Positions 12,111 through 50,864 of a stretch of DNA of 64,000 nucleotides are shown piece after piece. Numbering within the stretch: position 1 is the first letter of the stretch; each line of letters opens with the position of its first letter. This stretch comes from Nemertoderma westbladi (Eukaryota > Animalia > Xenacoelomorpha). Where the stretch lies: NCBI GenBank assembly GCA_032718475.1, contig JAUCBJ010009104.1, positions 1 through 64,000 on the forward strand. The letters run 5' to 3'. The notes below the pieces were generated by a model. It was not told the origin of the DNA. It did not search any database and worked only from the letters and a program-made list of their open reading frames with translations. The position numbers were made by a program, and so were the translations under genes.

Positions 12111-12159
12111 TATCAGGATATGAAGGCTTCTGTTGGTCGTACAGAGTTAATTTTAGGCT

Positions 12160-20211: not shown

Positions 20212-21215
20212 TATCAGGATATGAAGGCTTCTGTTGGTCGTACAGAGTTAATTTTAGGCTTATTAATAATCAAATATGCTCAAAATCAATGGAGCTTTGT
20301 TCATATTAATTATATATAATTAAACAATGGTGATTCCAAAACTGCTTTCAGATTTGCCATGCTGCCATAGCATATCAAGTTTTTTTTCACAATTGCCAAT
20401 TTGAGTTCAAATTACTTATCGCGAACAACTGTGATGAGTGAAGTAGATTCAATAATAATCAAATATGCTCCAAATCAATATAAAACATGAAAAAGAGCTT
20501 TGTTAATTTGAGTTATATATTAAACAATACAATCTATATGGTAAATCGGCTATCAGATTTACCATAGCATATGTTGTAGATTGATTTGGGGGTGAATTTT
20601 ATTCTTATTGAATCTACTTTCACTCATAATAATTGTTTGCGATAAGTAATTTGAACTTAAATTGGCAATTGTAAAAAAAACATGATATCCTATGGCAGTA
20701 TGGCAAATATGAAAGCAGATTTGGAATCAGCATTGCTTAAAAATATATAATTCATATAAACAAAACTCCATTCAATGTTTTGGATTGATTTTGAGCATAT
20801 TTGATTCTCATTTGAATCGATGCCACTCATCACAGTCATTTGCAATAAGTTTTTGAACTCAAAGTGGCAATTGTGTAAAAACTTGATGTGGTAGGGCAAA
20901 TCTGAAATCAGATTTGGAATCAGCATTGCCTAATTATGTATAATACATATGTGCAAAGCTTCTTCCTATATATTAGTTCTCTTTTGGTCGCTGGATGCAC
21001 ATATCTCTGCATATCTATCAATCCTTATCTTAAATGCTTTGAAGTACAGTATAGTATTGTTGTATATCATGCACCATATCATTTTATAATACAAATCAGA
21101 TGCGATTTTTGGGATCTGCACCTTAAAATCAGTCAAAATCAAATTAAACTAACAGTTCCTAGATATAATTAACCAAAAGATATGTTTTGTGGCCGATTAT
21201 TGATATCCAAATGGC

Positions 21216-24225: not shown

Positions 24226-26204
24226 CACATTAACATTAGGCACCACAGCGGACAAAGACGTAGACGAGGACTATGGTGCAGTGCCAGCAGCGCTTGATCG
24301 ACTGCTGACTGAACAGACCATTAAATGGTTAGAACAGGACTCAGCAGAACCCGGTAGTTACGAGACCACTATGTCAGAACAGGAAAAACGGTCATAAAAT
24401 ATTATGAGAGATACCATTCGCCAGACCGCGAATGGCCACTACGAAGTTGGCATGTTGTGGCGCCATGGACAACCTAAGCTCGTTAACAACTACCCGCTTG
24501 CCTTGAGGTGATTTAAATCAATAAGGGAGCGATTGTTGCGTGATGAGATGGCCCATATGCAATACAATGTGCAACTTCAGACGTATCTCCAAAAGGGATA
24601 CGCCATTAGGATGTTAAATCCGAGGTAACCACAGATCAAACATATTACCTGCCACATCATTTTGTTCGACACCCGGACAAACCTGGCAAGGTGCGTGTAG
24701 TCAACGACTGCGCCGCGCTTTACCAAGGGATGTCTATGAACAGCGAACTGATGGACGGGCCGATATGAATAATTACCTCATGGGAGTCCTAATGCATTTT
24801 AGACAACGCAAAGTGGCTTTCACCTGTGACGTAGAGGCCATGTTTCACGAGGTTAATGCTTTGGAGCTGGACAGGGACAGTTTAAGGTTTCTTTGGTACC
24901 CGGACAGAAACTTAGAACTTCCGCCAGAAACTTACCAAATGCAGATAAGAGTTTTCGGAGCCAGGGATAGCCCTAACTGCACCATGTACGCCTTAAAGCA
25001 GACAGCATTGGACAGACGAGACCAATTCGACCCAGAAGTAGCTTGGACAGTAGAACGAGACTTCTACGTGGATGATGGCCTCAAGAGTTGTGACACTCTG
25101 GAGCGTGCTACAACAGTAGCGCACCAACTCCAAGATTGTCTCGCCGAGGGTGGATTTCGCCTCACGAAGTTCGCTTCCAACGAACCCGAACTAGTAAACT
25201 CATTTGACCCAACGGATCGCAGTGGAGGAGACTTGGACTTAGACCTAGAACCTCTACCTACGACCAAGGTATTAGGACTTAGTTGGGACCCGAATACCGA
25301 TAACTTTAGGGTACGTGTAAGGTCCAACAACCAGATTAGACCTCTCACTAAGAGGACTTGCTTTTCAACCATGATCCGATTGTATGACCCATTGTGTTTC
25401 ATTAGTCCAGTGATCCTACACGCTAGGATCATACTCCGCAGCATTTGGCAAGCCGGACTGGAATGGGACGACCCCATCCCAGAAAAGTTAGCTGAGCAAT
25501 GGAGGGACTGGGAAGCCCAACTGACGTTCTTACAAGACTATACCATACCGGGGGTATGCTTTCCTTTGCAGACCACCTTTTCTGCCAATTTGGAGCTTCA
25601 CAGCTTCAGCGACGCTAGTAAGGATGGACTGGGGGTTACTTTATACCTTAGACGACAAGTGACATCGGACAGCTACGATGTGTCTCTCGTTACTTCTAGA
25701 GCTAGAACAATGCCGTTGAAGTATATGACTGTACCTCGTGGAGAGCTGCAAGCTGGGACGATATCCACTGATATTGTCAGTTTAGTTCAACGCGAGCTGG
25801 AGGCTAACTTAAAGGTCACGTATTGGACGGATGCGATGTTGGTACTTTGGTACATAAACAACGAAACATTTAAGTTCAAGACTTTCATAGCCAACAGACG
25901 GGCTGAAATATTGGACCGGTTGCTCAAACAAGATTGGCATCACTGTCCAGGGAAGCTGAACTCAGCTGGCATCATGTCACGGTGGATGCTACCAATTGAC
26001 TTTTGTAAACCGGACAATAAATCCTTTTGGTTTAGAGGACCTGACTTCCTACAAGGACCATCGGACAAATGGCCACCGTTATTCGACGTGACAACTAACA
26101 CCATACCGGAGGGTGCCGAGATAAAAATCGACACTGTTGTCAAGTCCAAAGCGAAAGCCAACGCCAAGGTCAAGAGGAAACAAGGACGGATGAAATCTGA
26201 TGAC

Positions 26205-26655
26205 CTGGACATTAGACCTGACATTACGCCAGATGTCTCACCAGACACTCGACCTCACGTTCCATTGAATCTTTCACCGGATGTTCCGCGGGATATTTCA
26301 CCAGACATTTCACCGGATTGTTCACCAGATATCTCGCCAGATATTTCACCAGAAGCGACACCAGATTGTTTTCCAGATTATTCGCCAGATTGTTTTATGG
26401 AACTCTCGACAGATTGTCCACCGGACGTCTCGTCAGACTTCCCAACAGACATCTCGACAGACTGTCCACTATACTTTGGATGAGACATTCTGACAGAAGC
26501 TACGCCAGACTTTCTTTGGGACCGACGACAGGACATTTCGCTGGAATTTCCACGCTATTTCTCACCAGACATCTCACCAGACTGTTCACCGGACGTCTCA
26601 CCAGACTGTTCACCGGACGTCTCACCAGACTGTCTACTAGACTTTCCACTAGACG
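26205..26655 (+). repeat. 12-bp minisatellite (PD[I/V/C]S)n in the RNase H-integrase linker
   Basis: CCAGACATTTCA/CCAGATTGTTCA-type units; ORF reads PDISPDCSPDIS. Confidence 0.9.
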
Positions 26656-28475: not shown

Positions 28476-30590
28476 TGATGGATTATTTCACTATTAAGTA
28501 GCATTTGTAGTGTAATGTAAAAACTTTCTAAAATCCGACGTTTTTTGATTAAATTACAGTAACGTAATATGCCTATTCATATTGGTACACATTAATACAT
28601 AGGTGACTCTATTGGCGTAGTGGTCAGATGGTTAAGGCATTGGTTACATTACAGGTAGGTTACGAGTTCGAATCCCAGTCGGGAAATTTGCATTTTGGGC
28701 TATTTATTTTTCGATCTGATTTGATTAGATAAGCCAATGAGGTGTGTATAACATGTGGAACGATGAGCTGGGCCAATAATTGGGCATAGAACATCTTATT
28801 GCTCCAATGTGAGGCCATGGAATGCTCTGGAAGGTTCTAGTGAATTCTATGTCCCAGATTTGCTATATAAGGGCCGGTTTGCCTTCGGTTATCACCTTAT
28901 CTTCACATTACCTAGATTTAGATTTGTTACTTTCTTGTTAAATCTTACATAAATTTGTTTGATAAATCTTTTGTAAATTACGCAAATATACTGTAAACTT
29001 TGAACATATATATTTCATCTTGTCCACCTTTGGGACAGCCAAACATTTGGGAGATGGCGCCTAAACCATTAGGCCATCAGCAACGCAGGGAAAGATGTCC
29101 ACAACACGCTAAGCGCCCACATTAGATTTGTCCACGCGCCCGTTCGAAGCATGCCCCCTTGCCATACAGCGCACACTTCGGAGGAAGGTAAGACTTTGTT
29201 TGACGCCCTTGCCCGCAGTAAGACCTATAGATCAGGGTAAGCGTGACGTGATGCTGTCCTGGGACGCCGTAAAATTTAGGATCGAATATTTTAGACTTAG
29301 ACAGGAGCAAACAAGCAAAATCCCCGGATTAACCTGTATCTCCTACAGGTGTGAACTATTGCTCTTCGTCAGTACGCGCAAGTACACTTTAGGTGCAGAC
29401 AGCACAAGTTCCATAATTTGGTGATTTGCAGTACTGACAGCTCTGTACCGGTTCACTTTGTAGTTTATACATTTGCCCGCCCCTGTCTGAGCCCGAAATA
29501 TTTGATCAGGCAAGGAGCAGCTTTCTGCTACCGGCACATGCTTGACCTAGGGAGGTTACTAATATACTACCGCGCCTTGCCACGTACTGATAGGTATTGC
29601 TGCTCACCACCGCAGCAACAAAATTCTAGAATCAAATTTGTATACCAGATCAGCTAACGTACGGTAGCAATTAACAAGTATTTCTTATCTTACAACCATC
29701 ATCTGGTATTTGTGCCGATCACGGGTGTAGTTACTAACACCGTAATTGCCCGGTTGAGTTGTGGATAGGAAGGAGAGAGCTTTGATGTAATTTTGTAAGT
29801 ATTACGCCCTACAGAGCGCGACTAGCTTATTTTAGTACTGTAGCTAGCACCCGGTATTGTTTTTGGTCAGAAATCACCAAAACCTAGTACGACGGTGATA
29901 CACCAAAATTGTTTTATTCGTAACACACACACACTCCCTAAAACATATATACTCCCCTTCGAGACCTGCTAGCTTCTAGCTTACTTTAGGTTACCTTTCA
30001 ATAGGAAATTTTTCTGCAGTTCTACCATTCGTATTTGTAATTTTAGGAGATATTTAGTATTTAGTTTTACGGCAAGTATTTTAGATGGCATGCACCCTTT
30101 TGACTGCTTTGCCCCTGTCAGCAGTATCGTTACTTTAGGTACTAACCCCCTTTGACTGCTACCGCTTGTTAGTAGTATTGTTACGCTAGTCTGTTAATCC
30201 ACTAGCTCGTATATAAGTAAGTCGCAGCGCGGCAAGTTTACGGTATTTAGGTCCGTTAACGATAGTTAGGATTCGCTGCGCGGGGATTGTTTTCCCATGA
30301 GTTTGGTCTGTCACCATAGACTGTACATCTGCCTCACCGGTTAGAGGCCGGGTATCCTGTTTTGTCTAGTTCGCCCGGGCATTTGACTCGCCCACGTATT
30401 AGAATAGACACCAGGCTCCGTTCCTCGCCAGTAGTAGTTTGCGTATTTAGTATCTGTTTATTTAGACACCCTGGACTGGGATTTATTGTCAGATACTGTA
30501 CGAGCCCGTATACCAGTATACACTATTAGATCTTACAGTAAGATACATCGTTACTAGGATCCGGTAAGCGGTATACTACTGAACTTTTCA
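28476..30590 (+). repeat. BEL-A 3' LTR (2115 bp, TGA...TCA)
   Basis: Starts after the PPT, ends where homology to the 5' LTR ends; TATATAA at 28864-28870; tRNA-like cassette at 28605-28683. Confidence 0.88.
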
Positions 30591-32733: not shown

Positions 32734-33098
32734 CAGGGATCGTACGGTAGTAAATTTTTGCGGTAGCGGTAACGGTATGGCTTTGTGGTAGCGGTATTTA
32801 CCGTGGTAGCGGTAGTTGCGGTATCAAACAATTTAGCTGGATTAATGAAGTTAGATGCTCACTTTTTGACGACTTTTTTTTAAATTGTGGCGTTTATTTT
32901 TGTTAAATTGTTTTCTTGAATTAATAAATTTTAATTTCTTTTTGTTTTTGTTGACAGAAAATACGCTACAATTCGAATCAATTTTTCATATATAATGTAT
33001 AACTGCTGTAATGATGGGTGAAGGTTATTTTGCATATTTTTCCATATTTGCATAAGGTTATTCTTGATTTTTGAAGGTATAAAAAAAGGAAACAATAT

Positions 33099-34240
33099 TG
33101 TAAAAGCTTTTGCGGATATAACAAGTAATTTTTCTCCGCAATGTACTGTGTAGGTGTTTTAGCGGACATAACAAGCCATTTTCTCCACAGTGTACCGTGT
33201 AAGTGCTTTAGCGGACATAATAAGCCATTTTCTGCCGCAATGCGCCTAATACTCTAAAAGACTGGAACTCAGATGACGAAATCTGTCAGCTGATTTACTG
33301 TCAATGTGGAACCTCTCTTTGTTCAGCTCGCTCAGCCAATCAGAGCGATTTTCATTTTATCTTGTACAGAGGCCTACGGAAAACCGCGCAATGCATTATG
33401 GTTTTTGTTTACCTTTCTGAGCCTCAGAACATCGGCTTAGAAATTCTTCTGTGCTTCTGTAGAAGTTTCAGACTTTGGCAAACATTAGATGGCTTTGATT
33501 ATAAGAACGTAAATCTATTATCAAACCTGGCAAATCACACCAAACCATACCAAACTGCATTATTTTACTTCTGTTTACTGTCTGTTATTAATTGTTATAT
33601 GTTGATGGATATGTTGTTATATTTGAAGAATACCGATAAATAATCATAAAACCCCAATCTTCTTGATTACTGAAGGTAAGATGGACCGGTTACCTGTAGC
33701 AATTGCGACTTACATTATAGTGGTTTTAGTGTGAATTAAATGCTATTTCATAATCCCTACATGTGTCAGTTACTATCCTCCTTATATATGGTCAAATTCA
33801 GTGACGGTCGGCAGATCAGTGTGCAGCAGTGTGAAGTCGTATGCAGTAGTGTGACAGATAATAAAGCATCTCCTAAAGAATGCGCTATTTACGAAAATCA
33901 GTAGCCATCTCGTTGTGTTTAGTATAAGTCATAACTCTGTTTTTATACTTAAAGCGCCACGTCCTAAAGGAACTGTTAATATTTCCCTGAAAGTGAATAA
34001 TATTGTCAGAGATTATATAGTAACGATCGATCGAATAATACCGTAGGTCTGCACCGCAATCCCTTCAAAGCATCCGAATCCAGTCTCCCTTAACTGTTGG
34101 TGAATGATCGCGCATAGACTGGCTTCGGCTAATGTTATTTCATGTGCACTAAATACTTGTCATAGGCTAAAGTCGATTTATAAACAAGAGGACACCTAAA
34201 ATTGGCAGGTTAAACTGCTAAAGGTCTGAAAGCGCGAACA
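33099..34240 (+). repeat. BEL-B 5' LTR
   Basis: Matches 49723-50864; U3 starts with ~2.5 copies of a ~48-bp repeat (33113-33243). Confidence 0.97.
33783..33865 (+). promoter_or_regulatory. Putative LTR core promoter and poly(A) signal
   Basis: TATATA at 33783, TCAGT initiator at 33816-33820, AATAAA at 33860-33865; CCAAT box near 33336. Confidence 0.55.
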
Positions 34241-35726
34241 GTAATAGATTTTAGTTTCTGATTGCACGTAGGCAATAAATTCGAATGTACCGGTCGGACG
34301 GTAACCTGTAGGCCTAACTACCTAATCACCCGAACCGGTACTTACCGGTACCAGTATTATTTCGATTGTGATATTGTATATTGGTAGGCTGTTTAAGAGA
34401 TTAGGGACTGTACACCCCTTGTTTCTTTTAGAGCTTATTTATTTCTGTCAGTTTTATTTATCTGTAAGTGTAATATTGAGCAGAAGGCGTGTAAGCCCGC
34501 TCAAATTGTACAAATAATTTGTAGGCTGGATTGTTGTCTGACTGTTGTTAAGTCTGAAGCGATTGCAGTGTGTGTAGAGTGTATGTCCGATAAAGTACTA
34601 GTTAGGAAGGTGGGGGCATCCAGTGCTGTAAGGTAAATCCCCCCCCGAAAGAATAAGTCGTACTACTCGGTTGGAACGCCTACTAACTAACCATTTCGGA
34701 GTCTGCATATACTGTAGTTTATTTAGGCTTGATAGTAGTTTGCCAGCGTTTGGTCTGTATTTTGTTTGTGTAGTCTGCACGGGTAGCGTATTTATTTATT
34801 ATTCAGAGTCTATGCGAGTATTCGCAACTTACATACCCCTAAGTTTATTCCTACAGTAATTGTGCTTGTTATACATACCGTTATAGTTAAATTAACCCCG
34901 GTACTACATCAGGGCTGCTTGGCGTAGGTAAAGACTGGTGATTTTATGCTCTAGTCACTCCAGCAGATACCATGGTTCTTTTAGCTGTACAAGTATATTT
35001 AACTGCTGGTTATTTGTTGTATAAGTACTTGTACCTAATTTAGGGTTTAGTGTACAGTACTTTCCGAGTGTGTAGGCAGTATATTTGTGTTGTAAAGTGG
35101 TTAATAAGCACGTTAGCTCTGGTTGGCTGCGGTAATTAACTTCTAGGTAACGTACATAACGTAGTACTAGCTGTAGAGCTAAAGACTTTAAGTCGTCAGA
35201 TGGTGGTATTTTCTTATCTGGACAATGCAATATATTTACTACTGCTTAATTATTTCAAATACCGTAGTATCCTGTCCGTTTGTAATAACCAGAAATTCTA
35301 ACCCCTTGTTAGGCTGGTTTGTAGATTTCCTGTAAAATTACCCTAAAATTTGTACGTGTAACTTTTGGTGTTTATTTAGAAATTGTAATCCTACACAGTA
35401 ATTGTATGTAATTTGTAGTAATAAGTAACTTAGTAAAGTAGAATTATTCGTTTTAGTATCCAACAAGTAGCACTTCACTGAGAGCGTTCAGCTTCTGTGC
35501 AGTGGCTCCTTACCCAGAAATAATAACATTTATTTCAAATATTGTCAAAACCCTTGTACGGGTACATAATATATTATAAATCAACTCAAACCGATTTATA
35601 AACTAGTAGGCCTGTTATACATCAATTAGGTGTTAATATCAGTTGGACTACTGCTTAATAACAGTAATAAAGTAAAGGAAAGTAACCCTAAAATTCAGAA
35701 ATTTAGGCATCATAAAATAATTGACA

Positions 35727-35990
35727 TTACCGGTATTTACGATAGGCTTATTATATTTATTTCTATAAATTTAAGCTGAAATTATATACCGGTATTCTGT
35801 AATTAATCCTAGTCTATAATCATACTTATATATACTATAAGTGTATGCTGTATACCGGTATTTATAGCAGGCTCATTATATATATTTATATAAATTTATG
35901 CTGAAATTATATACCGGTATTCTGTGACTAATCAATCCTAGTCTGTAATAATACTTATATATATACTATAAGTGTATACCGGTATTCTAA
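35727..35990 (+). repeat. ~125-bp tandem duplication with recurrent TACCGGTA in the BEL-B leader
   Basis: TACCGGTATT five times; two aligned units. Confidence 0.75.
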
Positions 35991-36123
35991 TATATTATAT
36001 ATATATCACGTTACACTGAGTAACAGTATCGGTAATTAATTACTAGGCTTATAGTTGTTACTGAATTACTAGACTTACTTTAACTGTCGTTATAGTAGTG
36101 GGCATTTAACTGTACAATCAAAC

Positions 36124-38780
36124 ATGGCTGATACAAAACAAACACTGTCAGATAGTCTCCTAGAAAGAACAGTCTGCGACTCAGATAGGAGTGCAGAACA
36201 TCTGAGACCGAAGTCCAAGTCCCCTCCTACTGTAAGAAAGGTCATCCCTCCAGTAGTAGTATCAAACCCTAGGCTAGTAAAGCACCGTAGGTCTATCATA
36301 GGCACTCAGGCTCAAGTCAAGCGGGACCAAGAGGCAGCTGTTAAACAGCAGCAATACCCGAACCGAGAACTTATTTCTCAGCGGCCCGATAGCTCCAGTA
36401 GTTCAGATACTGTAGAGTTGACACCCGAGATCGGAGCAAAGATGGCAGAAGCGGTTTATTCAGACCCACTTCTAATTCTTCCTGAAGCCGTACTCACTAG
36501 AGTATTGATTGCGGTGGAGGAACATCAAATCGATTGGGCGAGAAGTAAGCGATCGACCAAGGACAGTTATGCGGGATACACGAAGGTGGAACTGAAGTCT
36601 ATTGTCGAGATGCAATGGAACTTCCCCGGACCCGGACTCCCGTTTAACTTATCGGAAGCTGCCTGGGAGGACTTATACAGGATGGGAGTGGTAAAGGACA
36701 CTAGAGATCCAGCTGTGTGGAAGAGGTCGGCAGCAGGATATGTACAGGGATTCTTCAGCTCTTTGGAGCAATTAGAGGAACAACTGTTTCAACAACCCCA
36801 AGGACCTCAAGAGCAGGGAGAGCTGCTTTATCAAGTTCGAGAACGAATCCTAAGAATCAGACTAATCCTTTCAGCCTTTGAGGAAGCCTCGAAGAGAAGC
36901 CAAGACACGTCATTGCAAGTCGCCCTAAAGACTTGGTTCCAACGGGTGAGTCTTAAAGTCCAAGGAACAACCCAATGGAAAATTCAGCTAACTGAGCGCG
37001 CGATCCACGGAGAATCAACAGACGCTACCTTTTCTCAGGTGGAAAGCAATGTTACATCAGAGAAACCTCAGAAGAAGGACGCTATTGACATCTATCTGTC
37101 GGACTATCAACGATTTATAGGTAACAAAGAGTTGAGGAGACGGCTAGCTGGACTTCACCCTAATAGTGAGGGAGCCAAATTTGTGTTAGACTCATTAGAT
37201 GCGGAAATGTTAGCCGCGGATCAGGCTAAATTTGATGAAAGAATCCTCATCGCTAGGGAACAGGAAGAACAATTAAAGAAAAAACAGATAGAAGACAGAA
37301 AGACAGCAGCAGCGGCGGCGGCAGAAGTTGAAAGAAAGGCAGCAATGGCAGCGGCAGCGGCAGCGGCAGAAGCGGAAAGAAAAGCAGCAGAGGCAGCGTT
37401 AGAAGCTGAAAGAAAAGTGGCAGAGGCAGCGTTAGAAGCTGAAAGAAAAGTGGCAGAGGCAGCGGTAGAAGCGGAAAGAAAAGCGGCAGAGGCAGTGGCA
37501 GCAGCAGAACGGAGGGCATCTGAAGAGACCGTCGTCCCTCGTCTGCCCGCTACTATGTTGGCGGCTCCCGCTTCGGCGTTCGAGTGGGTGGATGAGAGAT
37601 GGCGGGGGATGGATCTCCTGCTCGGGCAGATGGAGGAACATCGGGAACGTTCCTCCCAACAGGTCCAGGAGTTGGAGAGGACTGTTCAACAGTTAAAAGG
37701 AACAGTAAGAGAAGGTAGGTTAGAGTTGCAAGAAGTGCAGCAGAGTATCGCGTTAGAACGCGATAAATTTGTAAATTTACAAAGGGGTATACCACCACCC
37801 CCTGTAACAATGTGTCAACCTGTCAGGTCAGAAGTATTTCATGCGCAAGGTGTGGAGCCTATACGCATCTATACTGCTAGTGAAGTAGAAACTCCTATAG
37901 TAAACCCTATTAAGGATAATTATAAACTTGTTGATAATGATATTCCATATAGACCTGATCATAATCCGAGAAATTCATATACCGATAACTCGATATTAAA
38001 TAATACGATGGCCCAAGAAAGTTTTACGCGTCAAATGTCTAGAACCTAAGCCCGTCAAGCGGTAAAGGTGGGAGAGATCGTCAAGTTCAATGGAGATGAG
38101 ATGAAATGGTTACCTTTTAATGAATATTACAAAGATAACATACATAACTCTGTACTATCTAACGGAGAGAAACTTAGATTCCTCATCGAGTGCTTGGAAG
38201 GACCTCCCAAGTTAATGGCGTTAAAGTTTATTGGACATCCAGATGGATTGCGACAAGTTTGGGATACACTAAACATCAGGTATGGTAATAGGACAAACAT
38301 AGCTAGGTATTTGTATGCGAAATTAGTAGCGCCCCGAAAGTTCCTTAGCAGCGGGATTATAGGAGTAGGTACTCGTTGGGACAAAAGAGTTCTCTATATG
38401 ATGGACCAGCAACAAAGAGACCCTACCATGGCTGATATCATGTCATTCTTAAATGGAGAGGGAAGATCACAGCTCCTAAAACAGTCCCGAGAGAAGACAC
38501 CGGAAAATAAAGTAAGTGAAAAGGAAAGGCTTCTAGGAGAAAGGTAACACCAGTGTGTTATACAGACGACGGCGAAAGCCAAACCTCTCAGGAGGAGAAC
38601 AGCGGGAAAGACACCGAAAGATCTTACTATGTCAACAAAGCACCTAAAGACGTAAATTTAAAAATAAAAGACGTAAAGAAGTAAATTTAAGTCTCGAACC
38701 AGTGACAGGAGAGAACAGGTAACAAAAACTCCTCCTACGTCTCCTAAGAGAATTCATGGAAGAAAGCCCGAGGAAAAAAC
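36124..38780 (+). pseudogene. BEL-B gag (641-aa open N-terminal part with AEAERK coiled-coil repeats; core frameshifted and partly deleted)
   Basis: ORF 36124-38049, then 38068-38547 (KFNGDEMKWLPF..KLRFLIECLEG..LNIRYG, BEL gag core). Confidence 0.85.
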
Positions 38781-38784
38781 GAGT

Positions 38785-41700
38785 GTGCACAACACTACCC
38801 AAGGTAAAGTAAGTAACATCAAACCAAAATGTGCATTGTGCGACGGGCCCCATCATTTAAGTGTGTGTGATGAATTCTTAAAGAAATCCTTAAAGGATAG
38901 ATGCGATGTCATGTGGGATAAGCGGTTGTGTTATAATTGTCTCAGACAAGGACACCAACGGCGAACCTGTTACTCCGACGCGAGGTGTGCTAACTGCGGC
39001 GCGAAACATCATATCTTGCCGCACACCGAATTTGAAAGAACCAGCCCGAGTCAGGTAAGTGAGTCCGAACTACATGTCCAATTCAGTGATGTGAATGACA
39101 CTGACCACAGTTCTGAGATGGAAGGATTTTACATGGATGAATTCTCCGATGAAAACGAATCCTGTTATATGATAAACACCGCGGTGTATCGAGCGCTTAC
39201 GTATGAGACTGAAACCGATAACGAAGCGCACCCGACTATTCCTGACCGACAACCATCTTGGAAAGCGCCAACTTCCAACGTCGGAATCCGGGAATTCCCC
39301 GTAGTTCAGCTGAGAGTCCATGGATCAGGTAAGAGTTTTATAGTCAACGCCCTCCTGGACTCCGGCAGCACAGGGACATTCATCGACAAAGAACTAGCCG
39401 AAGACATCTTTGCTGGACAACCCAAGTTCCGAACTAAGTTGAACCTTTCCGGAATTATGCAGGTTTGGAAATCTACAGCAGCTACAGACTACTATGTAGG
39501 CGCGTTGTCCACTCCCCAGGACGAACTAGGAGAACACAGCATAAGGTCAGTAAAAATGGTGGCGATAAAGAACTTTGCTACCAGCCAAGTAGAACCTTAC
39601 AACTGGGATGAAGACGATTTTACCCAGCAACATAATATCCCTAGATTCAACACCGACTACCCAGGGGTGCAAATATTGATCTTCCAAAATGCGCATGAGG
39701 CGCTTGAGACATTAGAGAAACGGCCTGCTCGACCGCAACCATTGCAAACATATGCGGGAAGAACTAGAGTAGGTTGGTACTTCACTGGACCTTCCCGTAG
39801 AACACTCATGGAAAGATTACCTACCGAACAAATACATCAGGTGAGTGAATGGGAAGAAGAAATCAGTGAGGGAGAGATCCCACCTGAGGGAACACCATAC
39901 TCCTCAGATAACGACAATATTACTCAATTATTTGACGAGGAAAATACAATCGACCTCCTCACCGAAAGTGAAGCTTGGAGAAACCAAGTGCACCTTTGCC
40001 ATCTCATCAATCATGGCGGACAACTTGACTACAACGACGAGCTAAATGAGGTGATAGATCGACACAACGCTAAGATTCGCAATGAACATGCCGTACGATT
40101 CTTTACTCAAGAAGCTGTAGAGCCTAATTCCTACGACAAAGCACTATCGGTTGAGGAGGAAAGAGCCAAGCAGATCCAGGAAACGACTACACGTTTTCTT
40201 AAAGATCAAGGTAGGTATGAGATTGGTCTGCCATTCCGACGGCGAGAACCCAACTTTATAAATAACCGACCCTTAGTGGAGAAGAGAATCGCGCAACTAC
40301 ATCGGCGTCTTACGGTCAATGCTTCAGCTAAAGAGATGTATAAGACCCAGCTGAAGAAATTCATCGATAAGGGATACGCGGAGCGAGTACCGGAAGAAAC
40401 ACCTATAACTGAGAGAATGTATTATCTAACACATCATTACGTTCCCAAACCCGGTAAACCCAACGAAGTCCGGGTAGTATTTGACGGCTCCGCCCTTTAC
40501 ATGGGCCAATCCCTTAACTCTGAGTTGTTGCCGGGACCCAACTTACTCCAATCCTTGTTGGGAATACTCTTAAGATTACGGCAATATTCGATCGCCTTCG
40601 CCTCGGATATAGAAGGCATGTTCTTACAAGTTAAGGCGCTGGATAGGGATCGAGACAGCCTACGATTTCTGTGGTGGCCTGAAGGAGACCTCAACCAAAA
40701 ACCGGTGGAGTACTGGATGACCATCCAGGCTTTCGGGATCATCTCGAGCCCCTCGAACGCTTGTTCAGTAGTGCGTACCACTGCTGATGACAACCGAGAC
40801 GCCTTCTCTAAAGCGGTTATCGACAACATCAAACGGGATATATACATGGACGACAATTTAAAGTCCCTCCCATCGGTGGAAGAAGCCATTGATGTTGCCA
40901 AGGGAACGGTAGAGTGCTTGAAACGCGGTGGATTTCGACTAACTAAATTCACAAGTAACTCCCGTGAGTTTCTGGAATCGATCCCGGTAGAAGACCGAGG
41001 AGTTAAAGATCTGGACCTAATCAAGGACGATCTTCCGGAAACCAAGACGCTTGGTTTGAAATGGGACACGGAGAGAGATATCCTGTTTTTCCAGCTAAAA
41101 CAGCGAGATAATCCAGTTCGAACTAAACGGATTTGTCTAAGTATCCTGAGCACTTATTTCGATCCATTGGGATTTATTAGCCCAGTTATATTGGTTGCTC
41201 GGAGCTTAGTGCAACAAATGTGGCTTGAAAACCACTCGTGGGACGATCCACTTAAGGGAGAACTACTAAAGAAGTGGATGAAATGGGAAGATTCTCTACC
41301 ATCCATCGAGAACTTTACGATTTCCCGTTCCTATTTTGGTCACGTTCTCCCCACGTATTCCTATCAACTCCATGTGTTTGGAGACGCCAGCGATATGGGA
41401 ATAGGTATAGTAGCCTACCTGAGGGTTGAAACTCCGGATGGAATTAAAGTTGCCTTGGTTACCTCTAAGGCCTTGATAAACAACAAGCTACGAGTTCCTC
41501 GAGCGGAGTTAAAGGCGGCTCTATACGCTACAGCCATCGGCCGGAATGTAACAGAACAGATCGACTATCCACTGGAGAAAACTGTCTATTGGACTGATGC
41601 TTTACTCGTTTTGGAGTATATAACCAATGAAGTCTGTCAGTTCAGCGTCTTCGTTACCAACAGAGTGGCCATTATACTTAGTCGCACTAATGTAGATCAA

Positions 41701-42012
41701 TGGAGACATTGCCCTGGGACGATTAATCCAGCCGACATCGCCTCCAGAGGAGCAACTCCTCAAGAACTGATAGATACTCCAGACTGGTTAGGTGGACCCG
41801 ACTTCCTAAGTAAAGAAGAAGATGAATGGCCTCCTCATCTCACCACGGCTGAGATTAGACAAGCCAAGGGAGCGGAGAAAGTCAAACCCAAAACCCGGAC
41901 GAGTAAATCGAAGTTATTTAAACCCGTGATAGATCTGTCTGTACTACACATTTCCGGAGACGACGCTGTGGATCTAAACTCCCCCGCCACAAAAATCTGT
42001 CGTGGAAATTAG
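38785..42012 (+). CDS. BEL-B polyprotein segment: Zn knuckles, aspartic protease, RT, RNase H
   Basis: CALCDGPHHLSVC, CYNCLRQGHQRRTC, CANCGAKHH; ALLDSGS; IYMDDNL; LHVFGDAS..VPRAEL..YWTD..NPADIASRG. Confidence 0.93.
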   Translation: MHNTTQGKVSNIKPKCALCDGPHHLSVCDEFLKKSLKDRCDVMWDKRLCYNCLRQGHQRRTCYSDARCANCGAKHHILPHTEFERTSPSQVSESELHVQFSDVNDTDHSSEMEGFYMDEFSDENESCYMINTAVYRALTYETETDNEAHPTIPDRQPSWKAPTSNVGIREFPVVQLRVHGSGKSFIVNALLDSGSTGTFIDKELAEDIFAGQPKFRTKLNLSGIMQVWKSTAATDYYVGALSTPQDELGEHSIRSVKMVAIKNFATSQVEPYNWDEDDFTQQHNIPRFNTDYPGVQILIFQNAHEALETLEKRPARPQPLQTYAGRTRVGWYFTGPSRRTLMERLPTEQIHQVSEWEEEISEGEIPPEGTPYSSDNDNITQLFDEENTIDLLTESEAWRNQVHLCHLINHGGQLDYNDELNEVIDRHNAKIRNEHAVRFFTQEAVEPNSYDKALSVEEERAKQIQETTTRFLKDQGRYEIGLPFRRREPNFINNRPLVEKRIAQLHRRLTVNASAKEMYKTQLKKFIDKGYAERVPEETPITERMYYLTHHYVPKPGKPNEVRVVFDGSALYMGQSLNSELLPGPNLLQSLLGILLRLRQYSIAFASDIEGMFLQVKALDRDRDSLRFLWWPEGDLNQKPVEYWMTIQAFGIISSPSNACSVVRTTADDNRDAFSKAVIDNIKRDIYMDDNLKSLPSVEEAIDVAKGTVECLKRGGFRLTKFTSNSREFLESIPVEDRGVKDLDLIKDDLPETKTLGLKWDTERDILFFQLKQRDNPVRTKRICLSILSTYFDPLGFISPVILVARSLVQQMWLENHSWDDPLKGELLKKWMKWEDSLPSIENFTISRSYFGHVLPTYSYQLHVFGDASDMGIGIVAYLRVETPDGIKVALVTSKALINNKLRVPRAELKAALYATAIGRNVTEQIDYPLEKTVYWTDALLVLEYITNEVCQFSVFVTNRVAIILSRTNVDQWRHCPGTINPADIASRGATPQELIDTPDWLGGPDFLSKEEDEWPPHLTTAEIRQAKGAEKVKPKTRTSKSKLFKPVIDLSVLHISGDDAVDLNSPATKICRGN

Positions 42013-43726
42013 AGAAAGAGACTGGAAATCTGGAACACCAGACGTCTCGCAGGGACTCTCACCTCTCCTGCAGAGAGCGATACATCACTATAGCTCCTGG
42101 AATCGGCTTTGTAAGGCCGTCGTGTATTTGAAGCGATGCTTCCATTATCACTACTCCAGGACGAAGATCGCTAGTGATACCGCTCCACTGACATCTGCGC
42201 AGGTCCATGCTATTAAAGATCTTCCCAAATACAAGATATCAGATAGGTTTCTGACGGAGAAGATCAGTTACCAGGAGCATGAAGAAACCAATAAGCAGAT
42301 ACTGAGACTCCTGCAATGCTATGAAGATTCCGATAAGTATTTCCTGTTGTTGAGAAATCCACAGATGCGCTTAAGGGATCGTTTCTCTAGCACAATGATA
42401 GATGGGTTAATACGTGTTGGAGGGAGACTAACTAATGCTCCATTATCCTTTGACACTAAGTTTCCCATACTCATTAGAAATCTTGAAATACAAATCAAGA
42501 TGATTGTAGATGTTCACAGTAAGCTGTACCATGCTGGTAGAGAACGAGTTCTTAGCGAAATTCGAACTCGCTATTATTTCCATAAACCCCGTAGAGCTCT
42601 GAACCAAGTTCTTAGGAACTGTATACCCTGTAGGAAAGCATTCAGTAGGCCTTTAACACAGCGAGAGGCAGAATTACCTAGGGAACGAGTAAGCTTCTAT
42701 GAACCACCCTTTACTAATACCGGTGTGGATTTATTTGGCCCTATTGAAGTATATCGTGCTAGGACTATAGTCAAGCGATGGTGTGTCATCTTTGTCTGTA
42801 TGACTTGTAGAGCGATCCATCTAGATATGGTGAACGATCTATCTACCAACAGCTTCATACTGAGTTTACGCCGACAGATCGCTCGCTTTGGAACTAGCAA
42901 CACGATGAGATCTGATAAGGGAACGAACGTCATTGGCGCCAATAATGAGATCAAGGCTTACGTTAGAGATTGGAACCAAAGACAGGTGGACGATCAGCTA
43001 AGGGTAACAGCATCTAGCTGGACCTTCAACGCCGCCGACGCCCCTTGGTGGGGAGGAAGTTGGGAGAGATTAATAAGAAGCGTGAAGACCGCATTTCACT
43101 TTATAGTGCCGTGCCAAGCGTATCTCACCGACGAACTTTTGCGGACGTTAATGGAAGAAATCGCCGCCTATCTTAACGAGAGACTGCTTATGCCAGTCTC
43201 ATCGATTCCCGACTCCCTGGAAGCGCTATCACCCGCGCACTTCCTACTGAAGAAACCTGTAGCCATGCTCCCACACTCGGAAATCACGGACGGAGACGAA
43301 TACTGCCGACAAACTTGGCAACATATGCAGTTATTATCCCGTCGTTTCGCTGACCATTTCGAAAAACATTATCTGCCTACGCTACAACTTCGAACCAAGT
43401 GGTTTGCGCAACAAGAAAACGTCAGTGCCGGAGACATGGTCCTTATTGTGGAATCCGATCTTCCACGTAAGCGGTGGCAAACAGGTCGTATCATCGAGAC
43501 TCATATCTCCGATGATGGTTTAGTGCGATCAGTAGAACTCGTCGTCATGCGACGTAACTTTAAGAAACCTGGAATTGTATTCGAAACGCAGCAGCTCAAT
43601 CGCCCAGTTGGTCGTTTATGTTTACTGGAAAGAGACAGAGAACTATCCGGAAACTATGGAAGGCAAGATACTCTTCCCACGACCACCTCCCTAATCCAAC
43701 AAACATCTAGGGACTCCCCAATGTAA
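42002..43726 (+). CDS. BEL-B integrase (frameshifted from upstream pol)
   Basis: HSKLYH..CIPC, GVDLFGP, SDKGTN, WGGSWERLIRSVK, and BEL C-terminal WQTGRIIE..DGLVRSV..RPVGRLCLL. Confidence 0.93.
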   Translation: MEIRERDWKSGTPDVSQGLSPLLQRAIHHYSSWNRLCKAVVYLKRCFHYHYSRTKIASDTAPLTSAQVHAIKDLPKYKISDRFLTEKISYQEHEETNKQILRLLQCYEDSDKYFLLLRNPQMRLRDRFSSTMIDGLIRVGGRLTNAPLSFDTKFPILIRNLEIQIKMIVDVHSKLYHAGRERVLSEIRTRYYFHKPRRALNQVLRNCIPCRKAFSRPLTQREAELPRERVSFYEPPFTNTGVDLFGPIEVYRARTIVKRWCVIFVCMTCRAIHLDMVNDLSTNSFILSLRRQIARFGTSNTMRSDKGTNVIGANNEIKAYVRDWNQRQVDDQLRVTASSWTFNAADAPWWGGSWERLIRSVKTAFHFIVPCQAYLTDELLRTLMEEIAAYLNERLLMPVSSIPDSLEALSPAHFLLKKPVAMLPHSEITDGDEYCRQTWQHMQLLSRRFADHFEKHYLPTLQLRTKWFAQQENVSAGDMVLIVESDLPRKRWQTGRIIETHISDDGLVRSVELVVMRRNFKKPGIVFETQQLNRPVGRLCLLERDRELSGNYGRQDTLPTTTSLIQQTSRDSPM

Positions 43727-45411
43727 CAGCGTCTGGAGTGGGTGTGTGACTATATTATTTTATATTTGTTTTTATTATTTTTATATTTATGTATGTATTA
43801 TTATGTAATTTTATTATAATCGTTTTCTTTAATTTTATTTAGTAGAATGTTATTTTAGCGATTATTTAGTAGAATTAGTGCAATATATATTCGCGTTTAT
43901 TACTTAATTACTTATATTATATATATTTAGCGTAACGGCGAGAAATAATTTTTTTTTCTCTTTCCTTACTGTCCGTATCATATTATAAATGCGTGACTAC
44001 AGTAAGATGAAATATCCATACTTATTAAAGTACAATAAAGCTCCTACTATACTCAAGTATTATTGGTAAGTAGAGTATTAGGAATGCAAAGTTCAGATCC
44101 TCGTGTCTCGGCTAAACTAAGCTCTGGGTAGACCTTGGAAACGACTTGCCTCTTCTCACTGACATTGCTTCTTGCAATATTGCTCTCATACCGTATATTA
44201 AATAATACATATAGTAGCGTGATGTCCCTTTAACAGTAGCGTATAACGCAAAATAAATCTGTTAAACCCTTTGATCATCTGTAATTCTAGTCGATTAAGA
44301 TATCATGGCACCCACCGATATACTTGAAAGACAAAACTCTAGAATCAGTGGTTAACGTCCCCAGACAAGTTCTGGAATAAATCGGTGCCCATCTTAAATA
44401 TTACATAGTTAATATTTATAAAAATCGATTAAAACAAATGTTATAATAGAGTAAATGCATACATATAAACTCTAAGGAGTTTGTAAACCAAGAAAATCTA
44501 TAAATCAAAATCTGTTAAAATTTAGATCCTTTAAAAAGACAAATTTCCTAGAATCAAGGATCCCAGTCCCCAGACATGCCCTGGAATAAAATTGTGCCTA
44601 TTTAATATTAAATAATAAAATTTACGGGAATAATTTTAAATTCATATCCTCTCATGAATTTGATAAATTGTCATTTTATGCAATTTATAACATTCCCAAA
44701 ATTCCATTAATTAATAGATCGTGGGAGCGGAGATTCACCCTATTAAGTATATTAGCGTGAGAGAATCTCCAATATATAGTCAATAGCCGATAAAATTCAT
44801 AAAATCATGTATAAAGGGGAATATTGACAATTAAAGAATTACTATTAAATAGCATCCCAGATCTGTATGCATGAGAATTACCCTAATTATACTGCTAGCT
44901 TTCCATAATGTCACCATAGCAACAACCACACTAGAATTAGAAGCGAGTTGAAAGAACAATAGAAAGCTTGCCCCATTGAATAGCATACGGAATAAATAGC
45001 GCACTGCTAGTATCCAAGGATACATAATAATAACGTGGCATTCTGGAAGGCACTTGACTAACGGACAAATGGCCTGAATGTGTACAATTTGTGACAGTTG
45101 TGTGGAATTTGTGCGTTTATAGGTGAACGATGCTACTAAAGTGTGTTTACAGTAGCTAGTCACAGTTGTGAAAGTAGCCCTACCTCTGCAGTAAGAACCT
45201 GAAGTAAATCTAAGCCCTTGGGACGGACAGTGGAGTGACTCGCGCTGGTTATTGTTGTCGTTGTATAGCTACTACGTTGGCGATAGGCACCGCGACAACA
45301 GTACATCGGTGCTGAGGATCTTGCGCTGTCCGGGGGCATTGAGGGGTAGGCAGCGACGCCCGCTAGCCTAATTACAATTAATTATAATATTTATAAACTC
45401 ATATAGCAGCT

Positions 45412-48400
45412 ATGACTGAGTTGATAGAAGATGATCTTGGTATCAGGGAGCGATATACCCTACCGTTGCAAGCGTTTGTTGATAGCCTAATACGCGGCGA
45501 CACTAGTCCAACTACTACGGAGGACGATGGCCGTTATATCGAACCGCCAATGTCCAAGGAACAACTCACGCATGAATTGGACTATAGAAAATTCATCGCT
45601 CGCTATACGCATCGTAATGGTACGTATATGGACTTCTTAACTACTGGCCATCCTATCGATTTACACGATACGGACGATGTAGACACCGAAAGGGAAATGG
45701 TTCTATTTAAATATCGTACCCAGCGGAGTCGGAACGATAAACCGAGAATCGAACACGAGAATTCTATTCGAAACCGACTCGAAAGAGAAGACGTTGAAGA
45801 CCCGGATAAACGCAGCAACTTCAACGAATATCTGGAATTCTTGAGAGAAACATATCTCAATATTGCCAGCCAACAAAATCTAGAAACTCGATATCGTCAA
45901 GGTATACATCATGACCCTATGATAGAACTCAAACGGCTCTATTTCACTATGATGTATCTTACCGCCGATCGAACGCTACCTGTCGTCCCGGATAGCTTCG
46001 AACAGATGGAGGAATATTGTAAAACTGGAGAACGATCACCCGCGTTTCCCCTACAAGACGTGCGTCATTGGTATTATTGCGATGAATGCCCTAGACCCAA
46101 CCAGCAAACGGAAAGACATAAACATCCGCGGAGACGTTGCGCTAAACACAGTTTTACTCGCTATACTTACGGGAGTTTCGAGCGAAACTTGTTCGACATA
46201 TCACCTACGTTTGCTCGACTCAAACGATCCTTAAATAAACCCATAATCAGAGTTCCGGAATACTCGGTCAGACCTCCTCATTCCCTAGTGAGACCTCAAA
46301 CTCTTGATCCTAATAGTATAACGGATCCTCCTGAACTGTACTCACTGTTCAAAGATCTTGTGTTACCCGAACAATTAATCGGTGGCACTCCGGTAGTAGG
46401 CTCGCTAGATATTCGCCCCTCCTACCTAGCCGGATTGGGATGCGGACATCTAATATCGCCGTTCAACCCGTACAATCGTTCCGGTTTAACCCCGATACAA
46501 CCCGTCACCGAAGTCGAGGAGAGCGTTGTACGAAACGCGTTAGACGCTATTCGGTAGAAGATCGGAAAAGGAACTTATGATTGTTTAGAGAAACGCAAAT
46601 TGCAGCAACAAGTCCAAGCGGTGAAGGAGTTGGCCTTACCCTAGTTTGATCAAGAAATCCAGAACCTCGAGGAAGACATCGAACTTGGACGAACCTATTC
46701 TCTACAAGAGTTCTTAGACAAATGCTTACAATGACAAGCGGAGGAAAATCAGCTCGAGGAGAAACACATCGAAATGGATGAGAGAGAAGAAGCAGCTTTA
46801 GCCCAACCAGAAGCTGAAATCCTTATGACTGATCTCTACTCCAAAACCATCATTCATCCCTCGATGGTTCCCCATTTCGGAGACAAACTCTTCGCAACAG
46901 TACAACCCCACCGGTTGATATCAACCTAAGATCTCGACATCTTATCGCTGACGCTCCTATGTTACAGCATCCGCCAATCGAGGCCGCTCGTGTCGACGGT
47001 ATACTCGTTGAACCTCCGGACAATCGAGCGGATCTTGTCCGTCGTATGGTACATGAGGTCAACATACGCGCTAGACCTTTACCGAACTCGTTTTATGGGA
47101 TCAAAGACCACCCTTATTATGTTAATCTAACTCAATATTATATGGTAAAACCGGAAGATCCTACACATAGTCTAAGGTTTCTACCACTAATAAATCCTCT
47201 CGATCTTGTCAAACTTGAACAACTGCAGAAACATCTGGATCAGTTAGTGAAAGTAAACTCATTCAGAAAACCCTACAATGTTTCCAGAATAGAGAAAGAT
47301 ATACTGCCTCCGTATAATCTCGATGGATTTATCAAAACTCGATTAGTCCACTGGAATCTCGACATATTATTCGAGGAAGAGAGAATACAACGATATGGAG
47401 ATGTAGAGACGTATACTACACAATATCTGTGTATAGGGATCTACCCAACGCTAGCGAATGCGCCACCTTATGGCATCCGGTGGGGATGACCCTAGAAAAC
47501 GCCACTAAAGAGTGGAACGAAACTCTTAACGTTATCGAAATGTATGGAGTTGTCACTTACGTTAAAGAAGGTAGCGTTCCGGTTGGAGAACTGGGAACTA
47601 CGCGCATGATACATATATGAGGATTAGCTGGTTCTAGCCACGTGTGTACTCGAGCGTGTTCCGACGTGATTGATTATTCTTTTGAGACCCTCACCGAGAT
47701 ACAAAAGAAACTCCGACATGGACAATTCGAACTCGCGCAGCGTTACGTCACCGACACCGAGCGCAAACCGGCCATGGGTATCGATGGATCGATGTTACCC
47801 CAGCCCGTGCTCGAGATGTTGTTTAACGAAAGAATCCTTAAAATCGGCTCAGCTGTTTATGGAGATCTCCAAAACGACTTTAGGAACATGGAGAATATCC
47901 CATATCCTTTCGTAGATACCCAGCTGATTGCTCCCTGGGCAGAAGGCCGAGGTTTCTTCCGAACTATGTATGCCAATACACCCAGCGGCATCAATAAAGT
48001 ACAACGAACCTCCATCGGACATCTTGCCTTCCAAGAGTACGGATGGAATTTCAAAGTCGGAAACCCTATCAACTATCAACAAGTATATGGAGATCATTAT
48101 TCTCGATTATACTTCGACGGACCATTGACCGCACCTGGCGTTGTGTATAGCTTCATGAGTGTTCCACTTCGTCCCTCATTAGCTATATACACTATATTCG
48201 AGAACGCCGCACTTGCCGGTTGGCTAGCCGATGTGTGCAGTCATACTATACGCGCCCATCCCTTAATACTTGGAACCAAACTCGCCAAGCTAGATGAACA
48301 CAATAAATTCATCCGCTTCGAATGCTTTAGGCGCTTTCTGACTCCATTCCGTAACATTGATAGTCAGTTCAAGGACCGCGCCCTGACCAAGCTCAGCCTA

Positions 48401-49696
48401 AGAGACTCAGCTGCTGAGAAGTTAGACAGTGCTGGATTCGCCATTTTCAAGGACATTTGTATACAGAACTTACATTCCTCTGTTATACAAAGACCTCGAA
48501 TCCCCATGGGTTATTCTATCGTGGAAGTTCAGACACTGGGTTCGCTTGAGGAGACAGCCACACCTACCTCAGCTATACAATTGGAAGACGAACCAATATG
48601 CTTAGAATCCGAGGAGATTCAGCCCATAGCGCCCCGGAGCAGTGACAACGATTACGTCCTGGAATGGTATCAAGGTCCACAATGTCTCACCGCGTACGAT
48701 TATCGGCATGCCAATTATGTCTCTAGGAAACGTTGCCGATTATGCGCATCTCGAGACCATTTCACCCCTGTGGACTCCAACGTACCCTGCTCCTACTTCC
48801 ATGAACAGCCTACGATGGAGATCTATTGTGTGTATTGTAGATTCAATAACTTGCACATTTTCGCAGTCTGCCCCCAATTTATGACTCAATGTCATCATTG
48901 TCAGTTTAAAGGACATGCAAGTTTTGATTGCCCTTTCAACCGCGATCTGGAAAGTGTAGATGAAACGATTACCCTACGCTACATCCGAGCCTGGGAAGCG
49001 AACGCGGATTTACATTGTGAGTCACGTCATCGCTATTACCCTGGACATGCCTACGAAGGAGTTTATGCATTCCACCCGTATCTATTCGCGTCCATTGAAC
49101 AAAAATCTCGCACACCGAGTTACGAACTAATGAAGCGTGTTGGCGAGAATATTTCGACCAAATTTGTTCGTAAATATCTCAGGAACATTAATCCCAACGA
49201 TCTTAATTCCTCTAACTTGATCAACTTCATCCGTCAAGATCCGGAATATGGTGACTTGTTCATCAACTCGCATCCAGAACTACAGGAAGTTCATAGACGA
49301 CCCTATGAATATAGAGCCCAAGAACGCGAGTTAGAAAGAACCATCGAACCGAGGAAATTTCTCACTACTCACGGTCCACCTACCGCTCTCGTGCAGACGA
49401 CTCGTCAGAGACCAGTAAGAGCTGCTGTCCTGAAACGTGCTCTGAAGGTTGTTCGACCTCGCTCCACTGAGGTTGATATCGATCAACCGGGTACCTCGAC
49501 CGGCGGATACACCGACCGTAATCCTAAACCTTCCGATGCAATTGTATTGAACCCTTCACCCAGGAGTTATAGCCCTCCTAGTAAAGTGGCTCGCCCCAAA
49601 GAGAAAAAAAACTGCGTAAACGCCGTTCGCGTAAGAAAGACTAACTGTTTAGAGTATTTTTATATTTTAGAAACTGTGATTTTTTATATTTTATAG
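45412..49696 (+). pseudogene. BEL-B accessory ORF3 (~1,400 codons, a few stops/frameshifts): Cys/His motif, DEDDy-like 3'-5' exonuclease domain, Zn-knuckle cluster
   Basis: ORF 45412-46557 continues through in-frame stops to ~46860; then 46959-47489, 47429-47620 and same-frame 47642-49696. Motifs VVTYVKE, LPQPVLEMLFNERILKIGSAVYGDL, FVDTQLIA, SIGHLA, YTIFE; CRLC...H, CVYC....H....C, CHHC...GH....C. Confidence 0.75.
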
Positions 49697-49714
49697 AATT
49701 AAATCCCATTTTCT

Positions 49715-49722
49715 GGGAGCGG
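49715..49722 (+). promoter_or_regulatory. Polypurine tract of BEL-B (GGGAGCGG)
   Basis: Abuts TG of the 3' LTR. Confidence 0.8.
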
Positions 49723-50864
49723 TGTAAAAGCTTTTGCGGATATAACAAGTAATTTTTCTCCGCAATGTACTGTGTAGGTGTTTTAGCGTACATAACAAGC
49801 CATTTTCTCCGCAGTGTACCGTGTAAGTGCTTTAGCGGACATAATAAGCCATTTTCTGCCGCAATGCACCTAATACTCTAAAAGACTGGAACTCAGATGA
49901 CGAAATCTGTCAGCTGATTTACTGTCAACGTGGAACCTCTCTTTGTTCAGCTCGCTCAGCCAATCACAGCGATTTTCATTTTATCTTGTACAGAGGCCTA
50001 TGGAAAACCGCGCAATGCATTATGGTTTTTGTTTACCTTTCTGAGCCTCAGAACATCGGCTTAGAAATTCTTCTGTGCTTCTGTAGAAGTTTCAGACTTT
50101 GGCAAACATTAGACGGCTTTGATTATAAGAACGTAAATCTATTATCAAACCTGGCAAATCACACCAAACCATACCAAACTGCATTATTTTACTTCTGTTT
50201 ACTGTCTGTTATTAATTGTTATATGTTGATGGATATGTTGTTATATTTGGAGAATACCGATAAATAATCATAAAACCCCAATCTTCTTGATTACTGAAGG
50301 TAAGAGGGACCGGTTACCTGTAGCAATTGCGACTTACATTATAGTGGTTTTAGTGTGAATTAAATGCTATTTCATAATCCCTACATGTGTCAGTTGCTAT
50401 CCTCCTTATATATGGTCAAATTCAGTGATGGTCGGCAGATCAGTGTGCAGCAGTGTGAAGTCGTATGCAGTAGTGTGACAGATAATAAAGCATCTCCTAA
50501 AGAATGCGCTATTTACGAAAATCAGTAGCCATCTCGTTGTGTTTAGTATAAGTCATAACTCTGTTTTTATACTTAAAGCGCCACGTCCTAAAGGAACTGT
50601 TAATATTTCCCCGAAAGTGAATAATATTGTCAGAGATTATATAGTAACGATCAATCGAATAATACCGTAGGTCTGCACCGCAATCCCTTCAAAGCATCCG
50701 AATCCAGTCTCCCTTAACTGTGGGTGAATGATCGCGCATAGACTGGCTTTGGCTAATGTTATTTCATGTGCACTAAATACTTGTCATAGGCTAAAGTCGA
50801 TTTATAAACAAGAGGACACCTAAAATTGGCAGGTTAAACTGCTTAATTTCTGAAAGCGCGAACA
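49723..50864 (+). repeat. BEL-B 3' LTR
   Basis: Matches the 5' LTR; followed by TSD AATAT. Confidence 0.97.

Follow-up and report, generated by a model that had tools for sequence, protein, structure and literature searches.

Primer slots complementary to their own LTRs suggest tRNA-independent priming in two BEL/Pao retrotransposons of Nemertoderma westbladi and in their relatives

Introduction

The window analyzed here, a 64-kb stretch of the Nemertoderma westbladi genome (positions 1 to 64,000 of contig JAUCBJ010009104.1), contains two BEL/Pao LTR retrotransposons, BEL-A and BEL-B, both on the forward strand. Membership of the BEL/Pao family rests on RT phylogeny. In both elements, a TGG-type tRNA primer site is absent directly after the 5′ LTR, and the first TGG past the LTR lies at +140 in BEL-A and +142 in BEL-B. 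The question raised by this locus is what primes reverse transcription in such elements. The ICTV profile of Belpaoviridae describes an 18-nt site for a host tRNA-Arg or tRNA-Gly, a length of 4.2–10 kb, and replication that is tRNA-primed and poorly understood (PMC8742986). BEL-A and BEL-B resemble this family in their Gag-pol domains, LTRs, and polypurine tract, as well as in the 5-bp target duplication of BEL-B. However, both lack the 18-nt tRNA site and both exceed the length range given.

Structure of the two elements

BEL-B (33099–50864) is delimited by an LTR pair and a target-site duplication (AATAT, 33094–33098 and 50865–50869). Its 5′ LTR (33099–34240; 1142 bp, TG..CA) and 3′ LTR (49723–50864) align with 98.4% identity. 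The gag-pol region consists of four open frames (36073–43726) and has all four Pao-type domains, namely DUF1759, Peptidase_A17, integrase (its zinc finger), and DUF5641. Two accessory ORFs of 386 and 691 aa (45397–49696) are located downstream of gag-pol, and the polypurine-tract position (49709–49722) ends with GGGAGCGG ahead of the 3′ LTR. The first bases of the LTR (33099–33143) recur 99 bp further in (33198–33242; 78% alike).

BEL-A, with LTRs that are ~94% identical and a broken gag-pol, is older than BEL-B. Its pol fragment (24618–26483) covers RT and Peptidase_A17, the latter being the sole Pao-type domain in this element. The 5′ LTR consists of a main remnant (8252–9741) and a further upstream piece (3791–3997). 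Before 8252, ~4.25 kb of unrelated sequence stands in for ~190 bp of the LTR, which resumes within one base of the start site predicted from the 3′ LTR (28894–28895). The 3′ LTR spans about 28477–30590, with a start inferred from a tract resembling the polypurine tract of BEL-B. A search for an exact target-site duplication at the element ends found none, and the left end is likewise inferred. The LTR end and leader are triplicated in 4.05-kb tandem units that are 99% alike (9375–21215) and continue up to a 100-N gap; this triplication may have arisen as an artefact of assembly. An inverted-repeat-rich block (12167–12858) is part of each unit. Moreover, a tRNA- or SINE-like stretch with A-box- and B-box-like motifs is present in the inferred U3 (28600–28695), with a copy within 3791–3997; ARAGORN and Rfam gave no match for this stretch. 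Elsewhere, the window has ORFs of a non-LTR retrotransposon (703–3285, reverse strand) that encode endonuclease and RT domains. Repeat arrays are located at 4900–7800 and 53900–57700, comprising 42-nt and 30-nt repeats within long open frames as well as a further array with units of ~460 nt.

Complementarity between slot and LTR

The bases at the position of a primer site (hereafter the slot) pair with a partner in the LTR of the same element. In BEL-B, the slot (34241–34251; GTAATAGATTT) adjoins the LTR end and forms 11 contiguous pairs (10 Watson-Crick and one G-U) with a partner in the 5′ LTR (33511–33521; 3′ LTR copy at 50135–50145), and four more pairs follow beyond a 2-nt mismatch. In BEL-A, the slot (9742–9753) forms 12 contiguous pairs (11 Watson-Crick and one G-U) with a partner at 8688–8699 in the 5′ LTR and 29335–29346 in the 3′ LTR. 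Two further copies of the BEL-A slot, starting at 13792 and 17844, result from the tandem triplication. In addition, TAGGAGATAT is present at 9376 and also at 30044; the former site provides a second sense copy of the slot, which could act as a competitor.

Such runs are rare in controls. With dinucleotide shuffling, an equally long run anchored at the slot was obtained in 1/300 shuffles for BEL-B, 1/300 for the BEL-A 5′ remnant, and 0/300 for the BEL-A 3′ LTR (taken from 28850). Among pseudo-slots drawn from the leaders (n = 500, with the real slot included in the sets), the fraction that matched the real run was 0.006 in BEL-B and 0.002 in BEL-A. When duplex energy was scored instead, BEL-A was significant (0 or 1 of 300 shuffles) and BEL-B was not (18–39 of 300). 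The BEL-B duplex has −8.6 kcal/mol, a value reached by 34/300 shuffles, and its terminal pair is the G-U; the non-significant result is explained by the A+T-rich composition of this duplex. Together, these results uphold, at every coordinate, the report of a first-pass annotation that both elements have no TGG site and have post-LTR bases complementary to their own LTR.

The same annotation described the two slots as covarying, and this part has to be reworded. The slot/partner pairs of BEL-A and BEL-B differ by three two-sided and two one-sided changes. However, alignment of the two LTRs gave nothing beyond matches of 13–23 bases, and the RT regions have 42% identity. Given LTRs with no longer alignment and this level of RT divergence, the comparison amounts to two complementarities in the same slot, rather than to covariation along an alignment. 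The partner is also unusually distant from the LTR end, by 719 nt in BEL-B and 1042–1244 nt in BEL-A, which is several-fold farther than in the relatives listed below.

Slots in related elements

For the pol region, the best matches are 43% identical, indicating that no close relative was found, and the named matches come mainly from cnidarians, molluscs, echinoderms, amphioxus, and fish. Relatives were collected by an alignment-based scan as the best 80 of 557 metagenome loci and 16 loci in prokaryote bins, and twelve additional stretches were drawn from two of those bins; two scans of viral contigs gave no relatives. Many of these contigs have no LTR or slot. In those with readable LTR ends, most slots have no TGG and the contiguous LTR partner is usually short. 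Reading these LTRs revealed a second arrangement, in which the slot is complementary to the joint that forms once a GT..AG intron is taken out of the LTR. Among 97 loci scanned, 27 have such a joint complement just past an LTR end in CA or TA, and L086 adds another. The 23 non-redundant elements of this junction type have predicted introns of 66–451 nt and 10–15 perfect pairs, with splice sites that are predicted from sequence. A contiguous partner, as in BEL-A and BEL-B, was found in five more relatives (L032, L036, L042, L045, and L063).

The anatomy of the slot is similar across these relatives. The paired stretch is 10–15 nt long and starts 0–5 nt past the LTR end, and the candidate primer 3′ end is AC in 23/28 non-redundant relatives, as it is in BEL-A (AT in BEL-B). 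When alternative deletions were compared, GT..AG was the sole deletion giving the pairing in 8/23 elements and 29/78 such deletions had GT..AG ends, a comparison that is biased by the way in which the junctions were found. One proposed LTR end (L093) lies in pol and was not included among the slots analyzed. A match in L077 is a local hairpin and was left out of the counts and the second tree, as was L004, in which the LTR end is not fixed independently.

For BEL-A and BEL-B themselves, no consensus GT..AG junction in either LTR pairs better with the slot than the contiguous site, and one junction with weak splice sites in BEL-B ties with it at 11 pairs. These two elements are of the intron-free type. 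Contigs of one sequencing run of uncertain kind (word fraction 0.12) spanned neither the BEL-A nor the BEL-B partner and had no GT..AG joint among the matches listed, a result that carries no weight in either direction. In the BEL-A 3′ LTR, a 112-nt intron is possible at 29237–29348, with the partner itself as its pyrimidine tract. The partner is followed there by AG and resembles a 3′ splice site, whereas the 5′ LTR has AA at that spot. If the partner served as a 3′ splice site, the spliced RNA would lose it.

Own versus swapped pairings and phylogeny

The specificity of the pairing was assessed with 20 elements in which the LTR end is fixed by an LTR pair or duplication, with three sister pairs excluded from the swaps. 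At least 10 Watson-Crick pairs between the slot and the RNA of its own LTR were found in 15/20 elements, compared with 5/374 swapped slot/LTR pairings and 1/38 swaps onto the window LTRs. Ten of the 15 need removal of a GT..AG intron, and the other five, which include BEL-A and BEL-B, are contiguous. The comparison with related families that the first-pass annotation had proposed as a test thus gave a positive outcome. Among the five elements that fell short, L052 and L074 begin with a TGG-type site, L043 and L027 reach 10–11 pairs under a relaxed splice-site filter, and L084 has a single mismatch; the last three were judged by eye and post hoc. Sister pairs of relatives point in the same direction. 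In 6/6 of these, the pairing is kept through 1–4 two-sided changes. Between L082 and L083, the two-sided differences are in the exon-1 part, and swapping the slots loses the junction match.

In a quick tree of RT-RNase H segments (54 rows, with unassessable loci and named BEL/Pao references left out), BEL-A and BEL-B form a long-branched pair (SH-aLRT 88). This pair is placed outside a group (SH-aLRT 98) that holds all junction-type and contiguous relatives, together with the two TGG-type elements. The contiguous relatives occupy three places among the junction types, similar to their placement in another tree. Because the tree is a quick one, is weakly rooted, and has long branches, the intron-free state of BEL-A and BEL-B cannot be polarized as ancestral or as a loss. 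Likewise, with this pair outside the self-pairing group and the TGG types inside it, we extend the mechanism to BEL-A and BEL-B by inference. The TGG-type sites are located a few bases past the LTR in L052 (843–868) and L074 (56–82), and tRNA priming was apparently kept or regained in these two elements.

A putative priming mechanism

A slot that tracks its own LTR, a fixed position and length, and a conserved end are what a self-made primer predicts. The signature of tRNA-independent priming by LTR RNA is well supported across the lineage. For BEL-A and BEL-B, we consider it roughly 75% probable that priming is Tf1-like, with an LTR-derived RNA and not a host tRNA as the primer. The partner would be transcribed and would anneal to the slot just past U5. 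Cleavage immediately 3′ of the paired bases (after 33521 in BEL-B and 8699 in BEL-A), analogous to the RNase H cut of Tf1, would provide a free 3′-OH. The reverse transcriptase would then copy U5 and jump to the 3′ repeat, and plus-strand synthesis would recopy the slot from the primer. Such recopying, which reportedly occurs in each round in Tf1, would cause slot and LTR to change together. Most relatives would require an earlier step, in which splicing removes the intron from the LTR transcript and thereby assembles the partner.

Where the partner lies within the transcript bears on the route. The best promoter signals of BEL-B, namely its only consensus TATA box (predicted; 33783) and an initiator-like TCAGT (33816–33820), together with an AATAAA (33860; the three spanning 33783–33865), are all ~260–340 nt downstream of the partner, such that the partner would fall in U3. 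A caveat to this effect in the earlier annotation still applies. The downstream TATA box argues against a simple 5′-end primer in BEL-B, although a CCAAT box at 33336 may leave an upstream promoter possible. For BEL-B, priming in cis is no more likely than a route in trans or one that uses an upstream promoter. In BEL-A, the partner lies ~440 nt downstream of a predicted consensus TATA box, which is followed after 30 nt by an initiator-like TCAC (28864–28896); a partner within R would be compatible with this layout. These predicted motifs would place the partner away from the transcript 5′ end in both elements. Of the earlier proposal of tRNA-independent priming in cis, the lineage-wide signature of LTR-RNA priming stands, whereas a cis route or a Tf1-like partner at the 5′ end is not established, given the downstream promoter motifs of BEL-B.

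RNA folding gives a similar picture. The probability of the BEL-B duplex is 0.71–0.97 for RNAs that begin no more than 10 nt from the partner and at most 0.02 with at least 20 nt upstream, and that of BEL-A fell from 0.91 to 0.54 to 0.0 in the same type of test. The BEL-B fold was not improved when two candidate introns lying between its partner and slot were taken out. Among the relatives, modelled spliced RNAs had duplex probabilities of 0.70–0.99 in 8/9 elements folded.

Long-range pairing between the 5′ and 3′ regions of the RNA occurs in Ty1. The pairing in BEL-A and BEL-B may similarly be structural, acting as a 5′–3′ bridge or switch for strand transfer, dimerization, or packaging, with the primer being another molecule or using another site. 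This explanation accords with the predicted location of the BEL-B partner in U3, where it would be present only at the RNA 3′ end, and with the finding that local structure beats the duplex in longer 5′ RNAs. It accounts less well for paired bases that sit exactly in the primer slot with TGG nowhere within 140 nt, and for the conserved length and terminal AC, as would be expected of a primer end. A structural role is unlikely on balance, and priming by LTR-derived RNA is preferred.

The matches in BEL-A and BEL-B could also be the product of chance or relics of decayed copies, irrespective of what is found in their relatives. The age of BEL-A, reflected in its divergent LTRs and broken gag-pol, the lack of energy significance for the BEL-B duplex, and the unusually distant partners are all compatible with this explanation. 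However, each match alone is expected in about 1 in 300 shuffles, both begin at the first base past the LTR, and both fit the pattern of the relatives, in which the partner starts with GT, such that coincidence or decay is quite improbable. Least probable of all is priming by half of a host tRNA or by another small RNA of the host, with an incidental LTR complement. Priming by half-tRNAs has precedent in Copia lineages (PMC6317226), but a fixed host primer would not give slots that differ freely among families and track their own LTR.

Comparison with known systems

The closest parallels are Tf1/Tf2 and Tj1 of the Tf1/sushi group (Ty3/gypsy), with Tcn1 as a predicted case. These elements have no tRNA site, and ~11 post-LTR bases pair with LTR-derived RNA (PMC7175516, PMC4600332, PMC6317226), the pairing in Tf1 involving 11 bases and an RNase H cut (PMC7175516). 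A stretch of ~11 nt past the LTR that is complementary to RNA of the element's own LTR, as in Tf1-type elements, is found in both BEL-A and BEL-B. However, the superfamily is different, as the domains in the window are of the Pao type and not those of a Ty3/gypsy chromovirus polyprotein. Outside Tf1/sushi, self-priming has likewise been predicted from sequence for TAR-lineage Copia elements (Houba and Osr-1), although these are plant Copia elements and the accessible sections of the source mention no splice-built primer (PMC6317226). Fungal GalEa Copia elements and bivalve TRIMs also have no recognizable tRNA primer site, but a hairpin in the internal region is proposed for these, rather than pairing with the LTR (PMC6934838).

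For BEL/Pao, neither self-priming nor splice-built primers were found in the literature covered (mostly open-access journals, supplements excluded). In the accessible text of PMC554778, PMC6238403, and PMC3118150, the term PBS is absent and the term primer is either used for PCR only or absent. The lineage-wide signature in BEL/Pao thus suggests a mechanism that is known in another family and was not found in print for this one. The window contributes a pair of divergent elements to it, both intron-free and with long LTRs. If true, a self-made primer in BEL/Pao would extend self-priming past the Gypsy and Copia lineages in which it is known or predicted. A splice-built primer in the relatives, if true, would tie retrotransposition to host splicing and account for the lack of a findable primer site in such elements. 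Self-priming also predicts exact primer ends, which are checkable in RNA and cDNA data.

A broader scenario is tentative, with odds slightly below even. It proposes a large animal branch of BEL/Pao that has lost tRNA priming. The host spliceosome would build the primer out of an LTR transcript split by an intron, and a second repeat copy, left unspliced, would pass the intron on. BEL-A and BEL-B would represent a deep intron-free arm with very long LTRs, taking the primer from inside the LTR and, in the case of BEL-B, from a second RNA.

Accessory ORFs and other observations

The first-pass annotation tentatively linked self-priming to an accessory nuclease, and this link was not borne out. 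The 691-aa ORF (47621–49696) shows CCHC-like zinc-knuckle motifs, and its N-terminal region weakly resembles an exonuclease. The accessory ORFs match only themselves in the window, with none in BEL-A and none in the fetched loci. Furthermore, in 14/14 relatives checked, only 99–355 nt separate the coding region from the 3′ LTR, leaving no room for such an ORF. A word-indexed search with the accessory ORF gave no match. Comparison with representatives gave three weak matches, of which one is apparently spurious and two (P0124 and P0126) are plausible remote relatives. An atlas search pointed to a cluster with DNA_pol_A_exo1 and CCHC (0.81, under the trust level), Pfam gave sub-threshold zinc knuckles only, and the structure model was unusable (pLDDT 33). 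Nuclease activity of this ORF is a lead only, and self-pairing is independent of it.

Several of the relatives have an unexpected provenance. The loci L081–L096 and L117–L128 (G001–G005) come from bins filed as bacteria, yet their BEL/Pao elements, of which several are complete, are of animal type, and G001 has 13 Peptidase_A17 matches. These loci are evidently animal host DNA, which points to contamination. In one of them (L086:2591–7310), the leader of a junction-type BEL element carries another, nested LTR element.
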